Shown here one piece after another: positions 101 to 4,291 of a stretch of 4,370 nt of DNA (its first letter is position 1; the number at the start of each line of letters is the position of its first letter). The position numbers and the translations under genes are program-made. The notes beneath the pieces were generated by a model, which was given only the letters and a program-made list of their open reading frames with translations, was not told the DNA's origin and did no database searches. Source of the stretch: a virus (lineage: Duplodnaviria; Heunggongvirae; Uroviricota; Caudoviricetes); IMG/VR virus record IMGVR_UViG_2602041905_000001; one strand, written 5' to 3'.

Positions 101-522
101 CAGAGAATTCTGGCGAATCCTCTGACCAGCCAGAAAACGACCTTTCTGTGGTGAAACCGGATGCTGCAATTCAGAGCGGCAGCAAGTGGGGGACAGCAGA
201 AGACCTGACCGCCGCAGAATGGATGTTTGACATGGTGAAGACCATCGCGCCATCAGCCAGAAAACCGAATTTTGCAGGGTGGGCTAACGATATCCGCCTG
301 ATGCGTGAACGTGACGGACGTAACCATCGCGACATGTGTGTACTGTTCCGCTGGGCATGCCAGGACAACTTCTGGTCCGGTAACGTGCTGAGCCCGGCCA
401 AACTCCGCGACAAGTGGACCCAGCTCGAAATCAACCGTAACAAGCAACAGGCAGGTGTGACAGCCTGCAAACCAAAACTCGACCTGACAAACACTGACTG
501 GATTTACGGGGTGGATTTATGA
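1..522 (+). CDS. O: Replication initiator protein O (lambda-like), C-terminal portion; 5'-truncated by the window edge
   Basis: Frame 1 is open from nt 1 with no stop until TGA at 520-522, so the TTG 'start' at 25 in the ORF track is an artefact. The coding sequence contains ori-type iterons and an AT-rich stretch, as the lambda O gene does. The stop overlaps the next ATG (ATGA at 519-522). The protein tail (...KLDLTNTDWIYGVDL) matches my recollection of lambda O. Confidence 0.85.
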   Translation, partial: TRDKTSLKLGDCYPSKQGDTKDTITKEKRKDYSSENSGESSDQPENDLSVVKPDAAIQSGSKWGTAEDLTAAEWMFDMVKTIAPSARKPNFAGWANDIRLMRERDGRNHRDMCVLFRWACQDNFWSGNVLSPAKLRDKWTQLEINRNKQQAGVTACKPKLDLTNTDWIYGVDL

Positions 523-1274
523 AAAACATCGCCGCACAGATGGTTAATTTTGACCGTGAGCAGATGCGTCGGATCGCCAACAACATGCCGGAACAGTACG
601 ACGAAAAGCCGCAGGTACAGCAGGTAGCGCAGATCATCAACNNNNNNNNNNACGACGAAAAGCCGCAGGTACAGCAGGTAGCGCAGATCATCAACGGTGT
701 GTTCAGCCAGTTACTGGCAACTTTCCCGGCGAGTCTGGCTAACCGTGACCAGAACGAACTGAACGAAATCCGCCGCCAGTGGGTTCTGGCTTTCCGGGAA
801 AACGGGATCACCACAATGGAACAGGTTAACGCAGGAATGCGCGTAGCCCGTCGGCAGAATCGACCATTTCTGCCATCACCCGGGCAGTTTGTTGCATGGT
901 GCCGGGAAGAAGCATCCGTTATCGCCGGACTGCCAAACGTCAGCGAGCTGGTTGATATGGTTTACGAGTATTGCCGGAAGCGAGGCCTGTATCCGGATGC
1001 AGAGTCTTATCCGTGGAAATCGAACGCGCACTACTGGCTGGTTACCAACCTGTACCAGAACATGCGGGCCAATGCGCTGACTGACGCGGAATTACGACGC
1101 AAGGCTGCCGATGAACTGACCTGTATGACAGCGCGAATTAACCGTGGTGAGACGATACCTGAACCAGTAAAACAACTTCCTGTCATGGGCGGCAGACCTC
1201 TAAATCGTGTTCAGGCGCTGGCGAAGATCGCAGAAATTAAAGCTAAGTTAGGACTGAAAGGAGCAAGTGTATGA
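519..1274 (+). CDS. P: Replication protein P (DnaB helicase loader), lambda-like; the reading frame contains a 10-N gap and a 44-nt duplicated flank
   Basis: ATG at 519 overlaps the O stop; stop TGA at 1272-1274 overlaps the ren ATG. The protein (MKNIAAQMVNFDREQMRRIANNMPEQYDEKPQVQQVAQIIN...AKIAEIKAKLGLKGASV) matches lambda P from memory. The length is 251 aa against 233 aa recalled for lambda P; the 18 extra codons are exactly the 54 nt made up of the 44-nt duplicate plus 10 N. Confidence 0.9.
   Translation: MKNIAAQMVNFDREQMRRIANNMPEQYDEKPQVQQVAQIINXXXXDEKPQVQQVAQIINGVFSQLLATFPASLANRDQNELNEIRRQWVLAFRENGITTMEQVNAGMRVARRQNRPFLPSPGQFVAWCREEASVIAGLPNVSELVDMVYEYCRKRGLYPDAESYPWKSNAHYWLVTNLYQNMRANALTDAELRRKAADELTCMTARINRGETIPEPVKQLPVMGGRPLNRVQALAKIAEIKAKLGLKGASV
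642..651. other. Run of 10 N (assembly or scaffold gap) inside the P coding sequence
   Basis: Ten consecutive n characters at 642-651, flanked on both sides by the identical 44-nt sequence acgacgaaaagccgcaggtacagcaggtagcgcagatcatcaac (598-641 and 652-695). Confidence 0.9.
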
Positions 1275-1561
1275 CGGGCAAAGAGGCAATTATTCATTAC
1301 CTGGGGACGCATAATAGCTTCTGTGCGCCGGACGTTGCCGCGCTAACAGGCGCAACAGTAACCAGCATAAATCAGGCCGCGGCTAAAATGGCACGGGCAG
1401 GTCTTCTGGTTATCGAAGGTAAGGTCTGGCGAACGGTGTATTACCGGTTTGCTACCAAGGAAGAACGGGAAGGAAAGATGAGCACGAACCTGATTTTTAA
1501 GGAGTGTCGCCAGAGTGCCACGATGAAACGGATATTGGCGGTATATGGAGTTAAAAGATGA
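1271..1561 (+). CDS. ren: Ren protein (lambda-like; confers resistance to Rex exclusion)
   Basis: 96-aa ORF with ATG at 1271 in an ATGA overlap with the P stop, and an AAGGAG ribosome-binding site 8 nt upstream. The sequence MTGKEAIIHYLGTHNSFCAPDVAALTGATVTSINQAAAKMARAGLLVIEGKVW... matches lambda Ren in length and sequence as recalled. Confidence 0.85.
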   Translation: MTGKEAIIHYLGTHNSFCAPDVAALTGATVTSINQAAAKMARAGLLVIEGKVWRTVYYRFATKEEREGKMSTNLIFKECRQSATMKRILAVYGVKR

Positions 1562-1634: not shown

Positions 1635-2075
1635 ATGAAAAAACTAACCTTTGAAATTCGATCTCCGGCACATCAGCAAAACGCTATTCACGCAGTACAG
1701 CAAATCCTTCCAGACCCAACCAAACCAATCGTAGTAACCATTCAGGAACGCAACCGCAGCTTAGACCAAAACAGGAAGCTATGGGCCTGCTTAGGTGACG
1801 TCTCTCGTCAGGTTGAATGGCATGGTCGCTGGCTGGATGCAGAAAGCTGGAAGTGTGTGTTTACCGCAGCATTAAAGCAGCAGGATGTTGTTCCTAACCT
1901 TGCCGGGAATGGCTTTGTGGTAATAGGCCAGTCAACCAGCAGGATGCGTGTAAGCGAATTTGCGGAGCTATTAGAGCTTATACAGGCATTCGGTACAGAG
2001 CGTGGCGTTAAGTGGTCAGACGAAGCGCGACTGGCTCTCGAATGGAAAGCGCGATGGGGAGATCGGGCTGCATGA
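1635..2075 (+). CDS. ninB: NinB (Orf-family recombination mediator), lambda-like
   Basis: The likely true start is ATG at 1635 (MKKLTFEIRSPAHQQNAIHAVQQ...), preceded by GGGAGAGGGA; the TTG at 1617 in the ORF track lies inside the terminator T-run. This gives 146 aa, the length I recall for lambda NinB. The stop TGA at 2073-2075 overlaps the next ATG. Confidence 0.9.
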   Translation: MKKLTFEIRSPAHQQNAIHAVQQILPDPTKPIVVTIQERNRSLDQNRKLWACLGDVSRQVEWHGRWLDAESWKCVFTAALKQQDVVPNLAGNGFVVIGQSTSRMRVSEFAELLELIQAFGTERGVKWSDEARLALEWKARWGDRAA

Positions 2076-2599
2076 CTATCAAATCAAATACGCCAGCACA
2101 CGACAAGGACTGCTGGCAAACGCCGCTTTGGCTTTTTGATGCACTGGATATTGAGTTTGGATTCTGGCTGGATTCGGCAGCGAGCGACAAAAATGCTCTG
2201 TGCGCTCACTGGCTAACTGAGGACGACGACGCGCTCAATTCTGAGTGGGTAAGCCACGGTGCAATCTGGAATAACCCACCGTACAGCAATATCAGGCCGT
2301 GGGTGGAAAAAGCCGCTGAGCAGTGTATACAACAGCGACAGACGGTAGTGATGCTTGTGCCAGAGGATATGTCTGTCGGATGGTTCAGCAAGGCTCTGGA
2401 GAGTGTTGACGAAGTTCGTATTATCACTGATGGACGGATTAATTTTATCGAACCATCGACAGGGCTGGAGAAGAAGGGAAACAGCAAAGGCTCCATGCTG
2501 CTGATTTGGCGACCGTTCATCAGTCCTCGACGGATGTTTACTACCGTATCCAAAGCGGCATTGATGGCGATCGGGCAGGGCGTCAGGAGGGCTGCATGA
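2072..2599 (+). CDS. Phage DNA N6-adenine methyltransferase (small Dam-family orphan MTase), occupying the lambda ninC position
   Basis: 175-aa ORF from ATG at 2072 ([25 protein letters not shown]...). It contains the catalytic NPPY motif (IWNNPPYSN) typical of N6-adenine methyltransferases and resembles the small Dam proteins of lambdoid prophages. The start in the ORF track (2012) falls inside ninB and is unlikely. The stop overlaps the ninE ATG (ATGA at 2596-2599). Confidence 0.8.
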
Positions 2600-2772
2600 G
2601 ACGACAGCGACGAAGCATCACCGACATAATCTGCGAAAACTGCAAATACCTTCCAACGAAACGCTCCAGAAATAAACGCAAGCTAATCCCAAAAGAATCT
2701 GACGTAAAAACCTTCAATTACACAGCCCACCTGTGGGATATCCGGTGGCTAAGATATCGTGCGAGGAAATGA
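2596..2772 (+). CDS. ninE: NinE
   Basis: 58-aa ORF from ATG at 2596, with AGGAGG 5 nt upstream: [58 protein letters not shown]. It matches lambda/DLP12 NinE as recalled. The ORF track extends it 5' into the methyltransferase gene, which is unlikely. Confidence 0.8.
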
Positions 2773-2774
2773 CA

Positions 2775-3116
2775 ATGGATTATTCACAGTTAAGTGATTT
2801 TGAAATTAACAGAATGGTAGGAGACATAATTTTTAAAGGCCTTTGGGCAAGTAAACCGGAAACATCAGGGAATAACACCAACAAATGGTATTACGGAAAT
2901 GCTGATACAACTTTTGAGCCATTAAATCATTTGCCTGACTACTGCAATGATCCGAGCGCTTCATGGCCGATTATTGAGAAATACAGGATTTCTATCTTAG
3001 ACCAGTTAACTGAATGGTGTGTGGATGCAAAAGGCGTAAGCCCAATATTTGATACCAGACCTCTCCGCGCCGCCATGATTGTCTTTCTCCTGATGCAGGA
3101 GGCCAATAATGCTTAG
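2775..3116 (+). CDS. NinX-like (DUF2591-like) nin-region protein of unknown function
   Basis: Open frame ending at TAG 3114-3116. ATG at 2775 has GAGGA 7 nt upstream; the alternative ATG at 2769 forms an ATGA overlap with the ninE stop. The protein is [24 protein letters not shown]...LLMQEANNA. Its position between ninE and ninF matches the P22-type ninE-ninX-ninF order; the family assignment is from memory and unverified. The region is visibly AT-richer than the O-P-ren-ninB block. Confidence 0.6.
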
Positions 3117-3303
3117 CCCATCTCAATCCCTTCAATACCTGAAAGAAAGCATAGAGCGGGCTTCAATGTGCACAGAGTGGATTCTATCTAGGTTTAGCGC
3201 ATACAGAAGATTGCCGGTAAAGGGCATGCCAAGCAAGTCGATGCTGCATATGCAAAAGAATGCGCGCTGGAAGGTATGGCGAGAACACAGGTTATGTGGC
3301 TGA
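3109..3303 (+). CDS. Short ORF with a NinF-like N-terminus ([10 protein letters not shown]...) whose 3' half reads through a ybcO remnant in another frame; possibly a chimeric or degenerate gene
   Basis: ATG at 3109 with a strong AGGAGG ribosome-binding site 7 nt upstream. The first ~18 aa resemble the lambda NinF N-terminus as recalled, but the rest ([21 protein letters not shown]...) lacks the Cys-rich motif I remember in NinF and overlaps the out-of-frame ybcO tail. Confidence 0.45.
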
Positions 3304-3326
3304 AAGAGGGGGTTATTAAGGCGTGA
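3240..3326 (+). pseudogene. ybcO: 3' remnant of a ybcO-like (DUF1364) gene: the last ~28 codons only, with no start codon
   Basis: The frame ending at TGA 3324-3326 encodes ...[28 protein letters not shown], matching the C-terminus of K-12 YbcO as recalled. Upstream, the same frame hits a TAG at 3195-3197 and shows no YbcO-like sequence or plausible start. Confidence 0.45.
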
Positions 3327-3685
3327 ATACCTACAGCATCACATTACCCTGGCCTCCGAGCAATAATCGCTATTACCGCCATAATCGCGGGCGCACGCAC
3401 GTCAGCGCAGAGGGGCAGGCATACCGCGATAACGTCGCCCGAATCATTAAAAACGCAATGCTGGATATCGGCCTGGCTATGCCTGTGAAAATCCGCATTG
3501 AGTGCCACATGCCGGATCGCCGTCGCCGTGACCTGGATAATCTGCAAAAAGCCGCTTTTGACGCACTCACTAAAGCAGGTTTCTGGCTGGATGATGCTCA
3601 GGTCGTTGATTACCGCGTTGTGAAGATGCCTGTTACCAAAGGTGGGAGGCTGGAACTGACCATCACCGAAATGGGGAATGAATGA
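3323..3685 (+). CDS. rusA: Crossover junction endodeoxyribonuclease RusA (Holliday junction resolvase)
   Basis: 120-aa ORF starting at GTG 3323, which overlaps the ybcO-frame stop as GTGA, with AGAGGGGG upstream. The protein [48 protein letters not shown]...[11 protein letters not shown] matches E. coli DLP12 RusA as recalled. Confidence 0.9.
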
Positions 3686-3822
3686 TGTTTGAGTTTAATA
3701 TGGCAGAACTTCTTCGCCACCGCTGGGGGCGTCTGCGCTTATATCGTTTCCTCGGTTCTGTTTTGACCGATTACCGAATACTGAAGAATTACGCCAAAAC
3801 CCTGACAGGAACAGGAGTATGA
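3682..3822 (+). CDS. ylcG: YlcG-like small protein (46 aa); not present in the supplied ORF track
   Basis: ATG at 3682 overlaps the rusA stop (ATGA), followed by a second ATG; stop TGA at 3820-3822. The translation [46 protein letters not shown] matches DLP12 YlcG as recalled. It lies in the conserved position between rusA and Q. Confidence 0.6.
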
Positions 3823-3907: not shown

Positions 3908-4291
3908 ATGCGTGATATTCAGATGGTTCTTGAGCGTTGGGGTGCGTGGGCGGCTAATAATCATGAAGATGTGACCTGGTCGTCCATTGCCGCCGGTTTT
4001 AAGGGATTAATTCCTTCAAAAGTAAAATCTCGCCCGCAATGTTGTGACGATGACGCGATGATCATTTGCGGGTGCATGGCCCGTCTGAAAAAGAACAACA
4101 GCGATTTACACGATTTATTAGTAGATTATTATGTATGTGGTATGACATTCATGTCACTGGCAAGTAAGCATTGCTGCTCGGATGGTTATATCGGGAAAAG
4201 GTTACAGAAGGCTGAGGGCATAATTGAAGGGATGTTAATGGCATTAGATATCCGGTTAGATATGGATATCGTTGCTAATAATTCTAATTGA
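3908..4291 (+). CDS. Q: Late-gene antitermination protein Q (short DLP12 quuD-type allele)
   Basis: 127-aa ORF from ATG 3908 with GGAG 7 nt upstream: [49 protein letters not shown]...DIVANNSN. It matches K-12 QuuD as recalled. The GTG at 3893 used in the ORF track is less likely given the ribosome-binding site spacing. Confidence 0.85.

Follow-up and report, generated by a model that had tools for sequence, protein, structure and literature searches.

A three-part mosaic junction of ninF and ybcO fragments upstream of rusA in the nin region of a lambdoid prophage

We found that positions 3109-3326 of the window, the whole 4,370-nt stretch analyzed here (one strand of the Caudoviricetes record IMGVR_UViG_2602041905_000001 of IMG/VR), are a chimera of three parts with two joints, in which the 5' end of ninF is followed by a filler segment, hereafter X, and then by the tail of ybcO. 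Located in the nin region, a non-essential part of a lambdoid prophage, this interval is very probably a fossil mosaic junction and holds no working gene. The initial annotation had described a single recombination joint between ninF and ybcO. Recombination was borne out by a scar on a microhomology of 5 nt, but the single joint was not: alignment to ninF and ybcO located the end of each homology (3171 and 3237), and the two ends do not meet but lie 65 nt apart, with X (3172-3236) between them. The scar is already known, since RefSeq flags the pseudogene, and it is an ordinary lambdoid mosaic joint. As a textbook joint of two gene fragments the finding itself means very little; the sole lead worth following is a recurrent breakpoint inside X, at 3219-3221.

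The window covers the early-right and nin regions of a lambdoid prophage in the order O-P-ren-ninB-dam-ninE-ninX-scar-rusA-ylcG-Q (table 1). The same gene order, NinX included, was annotated in phage ev207, in phage mEp332, and in the Escherichia coli type strain ATCC 11775. Three further features of the window were recorded outside the scar. Within the O gene (1-60), repeated ATCCCTCAAA-type motifs resemble the iterons of the lambda ori. In gene P, 10 N (642-651) stand between exact 44-nt duplicates (598-641 = 652-695), an arrangement that marks a scaffold gap where contigs overlap and that gives the P protein a spurious repeat. Between ren and ninB, a strong terminator-like hairpin of the intrinsic type (1587-1620; AGGCCTGC...GCAGGCCT and then TTTTATTT) occupies the same place as tR2 in lambda, and the weak Rfam match to Trp_leader at 1527-1616 (E = 0.54) is probably due to it.

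Table 1. Features of the window and left partners found at the recurrent breakpoint within X.
Feature	Position	Strand	Remarks
O, 3' end	up to 522		
P	519-1274		
ren	1271-1561		
ninB	~1635-2075		
Dam-type methyltransferase gene	~2072-2599		
ninE	2596-2772		
ninX (DUF2591)	2775-3116	+	Pfam Phage_P22_NinX, E = 7e-17; adjoins the 64-aa ORF on its upstream side
Scar region (junction between ninX and rusA)	3109-3326		
ninF 5' end, P22/ST64T type	3109-3171	+	~95% DNA identity to ST64T/P22 ninX-ninF; about 21 codons
Chimeric 64-aa ORF	3109-3303	+	21 codons of ninF, 22 of X, and 21 of ybcO read out of frame
Filler segment X, 65 nt	3172-3236	+	matches neither ninF nor ybcO; recurs in Stx1 phages
GTAAA, recurrent breakpoint within X	3217-3221	.	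deletion anchor and IS100 insertion site
ybcO 3' remnant (DUF1364), start-less pseudogene	3237-3326	+	29 codons and stop; 98.8% DNA identity to intact ybcO-rusA
CGATG microhomology, X/ybcO crossover	3239-3243	.	window versus intact ybcO (PhiR34_1) versus Stx1-phage X
rusA, Holliday-junction resolvase	3323-3685	+	Pfam RusA, E = 7e-23
ylcG	3682-3822		
Q-type antiterminator	~3908-4291		
Left partner: P	617|618		L127/L128, P0011/P0013
Left partner: P	about 712 (~712|713)		P0014/P0015
Left partner: 434-type cro			L125/L126, P0012
Left partner: a lambda-type cro			L264
Left partner: site downstream of ral			L131
Left partner: site next to ea8.5 (near ea22)			L129
Left partner: site without identification			L130
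Left partner: normal X-left flank			wild type

At the left end of the scar, the DNA homology to ninX-ninF stops at 3171 after ~95% identity, both by blastn and in the alignment. The NinF-like start and strong ribosome-binding site reported at 3109 were confirmed. The ATG has AGGAGG six bases upstream and overlaps the ninX stop (ATGCTTAG), and the ORF of 64 aa that begins there stands directly after ninX and shares its first 18 residues with NinF of P22/ST64T. Beyond this leader the family likeness ends. The PHROG profile of the NinF family (672) aligns with the ORF at positions 1-22 of 58 only (E = 3.6e-4), and neither the ORF nor the third-frame translation gave a Pfam match to the NinF core (PF05810) at E <= 10; NinF of ST64T scores E = 6e-14. 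The Pfam model represents a zinc ribbon, CxxC...CxxCC, which lies at residues 20-44 of P22/ST64T NinF. Exactly this zinc-ribbon region has been replaced here, so that the NinF core is gone and the suspected loss of the 3' part of ninF is upheld.

At the right end, the last 29 codons in the frame that ends with TGA at 3324-3326 are the C-terminus of YbcO. From 3237 on, the DNA shares 98.8% identity with ybcO-rusA of phage PhiR34_1, where ybcO is intact, and the encoded peptide aligns with residues 67-96 of the 96 in the YbcO structure 3G27 (E = 7e-13); the similarity of the ybcO tail, on which the initial annotation hung, is thus significant. The Pfam YbcO profile (PF07102) was matched at positions 62-92 of 92 with 17.7 bits, which is below the curated cut-off of 29.9. 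The resemblance of the ninF and ybcO parts to their parents is far beyond chance. The tail was said to lie start-less behind a TAG, and in fact its frame is closed upstream by TAG at both 3189-3191 and 3195-3197, has no start codon, and differs from the reading frame of the 64-aa ORF. Its stop still overlaps the GTG start of rusA at 3323 as GTGA (3323-3326), also as described. YbcO/DUF1364 belongs to the His-Me finger nucleases (PMC5714182). The C-terminal segment and the stop overlapping rusA are retained in the window, and the N-terminal His-Me finger/metal-binding core (residues ~1-66) and an intact ORF are absent. Homology starts at residue 67, and with the scar the initial 66-67 codons of ybcO were lost, His-Me finger core included, in line with the earlier view that most of ybcO was deleted. 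The equivalent of 3237-3326 in ATCC 11775 is annotated by RefSeq/PGAP as a pseudogene, "incomplete; missing N-terminus."

The segment between the two homologies is found elsewhere. X with its shared flanks extends over 3143-3243, and these 101 nt are 88% identical to the Stx1 phages SH2026Stx1 and AU6Stx1, in which X comes after ninE and a lambda-type ninF 5' stub (IDQNRSYEQESVERA...). In the Stx1 phages X is then followed by an AT-rich stretch with a reverse-strand gene, whereas in the window it is followed by ybcO-rusA, whose homology begins at 3237. A three-way comparison placed the X/ybcO crossover on the 5-nt CGATG, common to all three parental sequences, as illegitimate recombination predicts. 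Outside the lineage of the window, X was detected in the Stx1 phages only, likewise directly after a ninF 5' stub. Our survey comprised an 18-nt core of X among the collected loci (121 occurrences), the phage records matching X (31), and one match to a species-representative genome, and X always stood behind a ninF 5' end, in two contexts only. No third genomic context was found in the phage collection, IMG/VR, the species-representative genomes, or the metagenome scan; a 16-mer scan of genome contigs for X gave matches that were almost all due to chance. Because X also sits behind a ninF stub in the Stx1 phages, the history of the scar includes at least two events.

The lambda-type ninF stub before X in the Stx1 phages is likewise a pseudogene. 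In SH2026Stx1 (L005 1960-2130) and ~35 IMG/VR loci it usually has TAA for CAA at codon 4, and these stubs show GTG or TAA at the start position and are unannotated. In one IMG/VR locus with the Stx1-phage version of X, an element that we take to be IS5 is inserted at or near CTAG inside X (equivalent to 3187-3190), the insertion point being set by what we assume to be the IS5 end.

The border between ninF and X is fuzzy: by eye, the similarity falls from ~95% to roughly 70% across ~20 nt and then to background. Given this gradual fading, X might be what is left of a highly divergent ninF allele, that is, a strongly diverged and frameshifted ninF middle rather than foreign DNA, which would leave X|ybcO as the only true joint. 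We consider this unlikely. The first ~20 nt past the break are, by eye, ~70% like canonical ninF and one Cys of the CxxC is retained (ERASMC vs. ERALTC), but past ~3180 there is no ninF similarity in any frame, blastn in distant mode found no ninF match beyond 3171, and no Pfam NinF match was obtained in three frames at E <= 10. That X follows the ninF 5' end at the same position in both known contexts also fits a diverged ninF. An LxCAxxG match in the third frame of X was dismissed, being out of register with the DNA alignment. The frames of X did not match the NinF or YbcO profiles of Pfam, NCBIfam, and PHROG, and X as a frameshifted NinF or an internal piece of YbcO was rejected; no other Pfam or NCBIfam family was matched in any frame either. 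The X of the window differs from the Stx1-phage version at 12 nt, which give eight amino-acid changes in the frame of the ORF and seven in each of the other two, so no reading frame is favored. A structured RNA, a terminator, or a known RNA family was rejected as well, since X matched no Rfam family, contained no terminator-like site, and had no stable fold, its fold z-score (+1.9) being worse than that of shuffled sequences.

The 64-aa ORF is best read as a by-product of the junction and is predicted to be non-functional, although it is probably translated because the initiation signals of ninF were inherited. Among 45 haplotypes, the ORF had 13 non-synonymous versus 5 synonymous polymorphisms (omega-like 0.66), rusA 26 versus 37 (0.21), and ninX 12 versus 12 (0.25). 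The substitution patterns of the ORF and rusA differed (Fisher p = 0.03), and rusA is under purifying selection. The initial annotation had held that an intact family conserved by purifying selection would count against a scar; the ORF showed no sign of purifying selection, and its only copies were near-identical ones in E. coli. A search of 5.8 billion proteins revealed no relatives beyond near-identical or rearranged E. coli copies, and it also returned variants of the ORF with frameshifts into other frames, IS read-throughs, fusions, and truncations. One of the database proteins (P0016) has the ORF fused to DVYKRQ..., which we take to be a translated Nextera transposase adaptor; if this identification is right, the protein reflects adaptor contamination in a public assembly.

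Several observations nevertheless speak against a by-product, namely the AGGAGG with a coupled start, the intactness of the ORF, and the low polymorphism of X. The ORF was free of nonsense changes and frameshifts in 81 of the 85 sequences compared, with very low diversity, the other four having a deletion that removes rusA (three) or an in-frame expansion of a 9-nt repeat (one). X was the least polymorphic part of the junction, with 1 variable site in 65 nt, as expected of a junction of single origin that, unlike its flanks, is unable to import alleles by homologous exchange. Intactness and low polymorphism could suggest constraint, but they are also expected of a young, single-origin junction; the comparison contained ~19 substitutions in total, for which about one nonsense change is expected by chance. 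As for the repeat, one IMG/VR locus (L083) has an in-frame 9-nt unit (TCAATCCCT) expanded in the ninF 5' leader (~3120-3140 equivalent), giving SLQSLQSLQ.

In the gene downstream, the RusA domain (PF05866) is full-length, covering profile positions 1-123 of 124, and rusA was annotated in all related records. The sequence upstream of rusA is unchanged from that of intact ybcO-rusA and includes a Shine-Dalgarno-like GAGGGGG 10-13 nt before the GTG. The rusA of K-12 is normally quiescent, becoming active when IS2 or IS10 inserts upstream (PMC1636454). Natural variants without the whole ybcO'-rusA-ylcG exist, indicating that the region is dispensable. The nin region of lambda as a whole is dispensable too, as the nin5 deletion shows.

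The initial annotation made rusA expression dependent on the 64-aa ORF, a proposal that gained no support here. Could the ORF then be a new small gene with a function of its own, or serve as a leader that brings ribosomes to rusA in place of the lost ybcO-rusA coupling? We regard this as improbable. Such a role would suit the strong ribosome-binding site and the start overlapping the ninX stop, the persistence of the intact ORF in 81 of 85 sequences and in 584 genomes, and the position of its stop 20 nt ahead of the rusA GTG, which is itself poorly spaced from its Shine-Dalgarno sequence; yet the substitution pattern is near neutral, unlike that of rusA, no family is matched past the 22-residue NinF leader, and one-third of the ORF consists of out-of-frame ybcO. 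Versions that are frameshifted, carry IS100, or have lost rusA survive in nature, and the gene that the leader would serve sits in the nin region, dispensable in lambda. The label "protein ninF" in some records could be cited for function, but annotation of the ORF varies among phage records from this name to "hypothetical protein" or nothing at all, and the name should be treated with caution, given to an ORF without the NinF domain.

The distribution of the scar is wide. An identical or near-identical 351-nt stretch was present in 27 phage records, including ev207, ev017, 2G7b, mEp332, PhiR57_1, and the Lambda_ev series, several of which list E. coli K-12 MG1655 as host, and the full joint was present in 584 of 5426 complete E. 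coli genomes (~11%), ATCC 11775 among them. This spread marks the scar as a fixed, widespread haplotype and excludes both an assembly artefact and a lesion private to this genome. An assembly or scaffolding error of the draft sequence, for which the scaffold gap with duplicated flanks at 598-695 might be invoked, has practically no chance of being the source of the joint and is refuted by the identical 351-nt stretch in complete phage genomes and the 584 complete E. coli genomes.

For the mosaic junction, we infer the following order of events. An allele would have pre-existed in which the ninF 5' end was followed by the unrelated 65-nt X, as is still found in Stx1 phages. Next, illegitimate recombination at CGATG would have placed X in front of the final 29 codons of a DLP12-type ybcO, by which the His-Me finger core of ybcO would have been lost and the downstream rusA-ylcG-Q module gained, while homologous exchange within the conserved 5' end of ninF could account for the P22-type left flank. 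Since the start codon and ribosome-binding site of ninF survived, an open frame runs through X and the out-of-frame ybcO tail, giving the 64-aa ORF. The ORF would probably be translated but under no selection. The start context of rusA is its own, to which termination-reinitiation from the ORF might add, and the haplotype would have spread widely among E. coli prophages afterwards.

The phosphodiester 3219|3220 within X (ccGGTA|AAGGGCATGCC) is a recurrent rearrangement point among related prophages. At least eight independent prophage deletions and one IS100 insertion have their break at 3219-3221. At least eight different left partners, among which the normal X-left flank is listed, were joined within the same 1-3 nt to an identical right side, (T)AAAGGGCATGCC (table 1); the partner site downstream of ral lies upstream of sieB on the lambda sequence. 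Other sites were reused as well, in independent combinations. One deletion starts at the X breakpoint and runs from 3219 to 3774 (right end 3773|3774, in ylcG; L133), and a deletion from 3294|3295 ends at the same 3773|3774 (L134-136). The break 617|618 in P recurs in two further combinations, one with 1054|1055 and one with a P22-type cro site. This breakpoint falls within the duplicated 44-mer of gene P, and 1044|1045 is likewise among the recurrent deletion breakpoints in related defective prophages. Nearly all junctions lie on a TA or GTA microhomology, the exception being the junction with the lambda-type cro, which lies on AAA.

An insertion sequence was found at the same point. IS100, of the IS21 family, is inserted exactly at ccgGTAAA|TGTCACG in one genome (GCA_041520495.1; L132 5109-5224, corresponding to window 3217-3221), and a second IS100 insertion occurs ~30 nt downstream, near 3250, in another (P0008). 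In both cases rusA lies downstream, as it does for the IS2 and IS10 insertions by which it is activated in K-12. The hotspot as a target consensus of IS100 was rejected, because the similar flanks in the first BLAST results were a ranking artefact. Six complete IS100 copies had variable 5-bp duplications (TAAAC, GTTAT, GTACC, TGAAG, GCAAA, and TTAGG), and no IS100 was found beside the right flank of X in complete E. coli genomes. A Chi-like sequence, RusA cleavage 5' of CC, splice-like or integron-like sites, and GCCGGT restriction were also considered, and on comparison of the sequences none of them fits all breakpoints.

Because IS100 sits exactly at the hotspot in one genome, an IS-anchored deletion was considered. 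IEE-dependent IS excision reportedly produces IS-adjacent deletions from a few nt to >40 kb with microhomology-mediated joining (PMC9943667), and a circular intermediate is presumed for the IS21 family (bioRxiv 10.1101/2023.06.07.543989). In light of these reports, an IS-anchored, excision-coupled deletion is a plausible though unproven cause of the hotspot, but alone it does not explain the other reused sites. As an alternative, an undescribed site-specific cleavage process could be shaping prophage decay. It is doubtful that GTAAA at 3217-3221 is a site-specific breakage or rearrangement hotspot that repeatedly truncates lambdoid prophages and leaves the rusA-Q-lysis side; if it were a genuine one, it would bear on how defective prophages shrink and yet keep their rusA-Q-lysis module.

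The window was compared with known systems. P22/ST64T matches it at ~95% identity from ninX through the overlapping ATG to codon 21 of ninF, but the window lacks both the zinc ribbon of NinF and the ninG/HNH genes that follow in these phages. The DLP12/phage-82-type ybcO-rusA-ylcG-quuD module, as in E. coli K-12 and PhiR34_1, shows 96-99% DNA identity from 3237 onward and has the ybcO 3' end, the GTGA overlap, rusA, ylcG, and Q in common with the window; it possesses the first 66-67 codons of ybcO and a ninE-ybcO junction, whereas the window has ninX, the ninF 5' end, and X instead. The same exchange of modules at short conserved or micro-homologous sequences, with gene fragments left behind, is characteristic of nin-region mosaicism and of prophage pseudogenes. 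From this ordinary lambdoid mosaicism the junction shows no categorical difference, the recurrent breakpoint at 3219-3221 being its sole distinctive feature.
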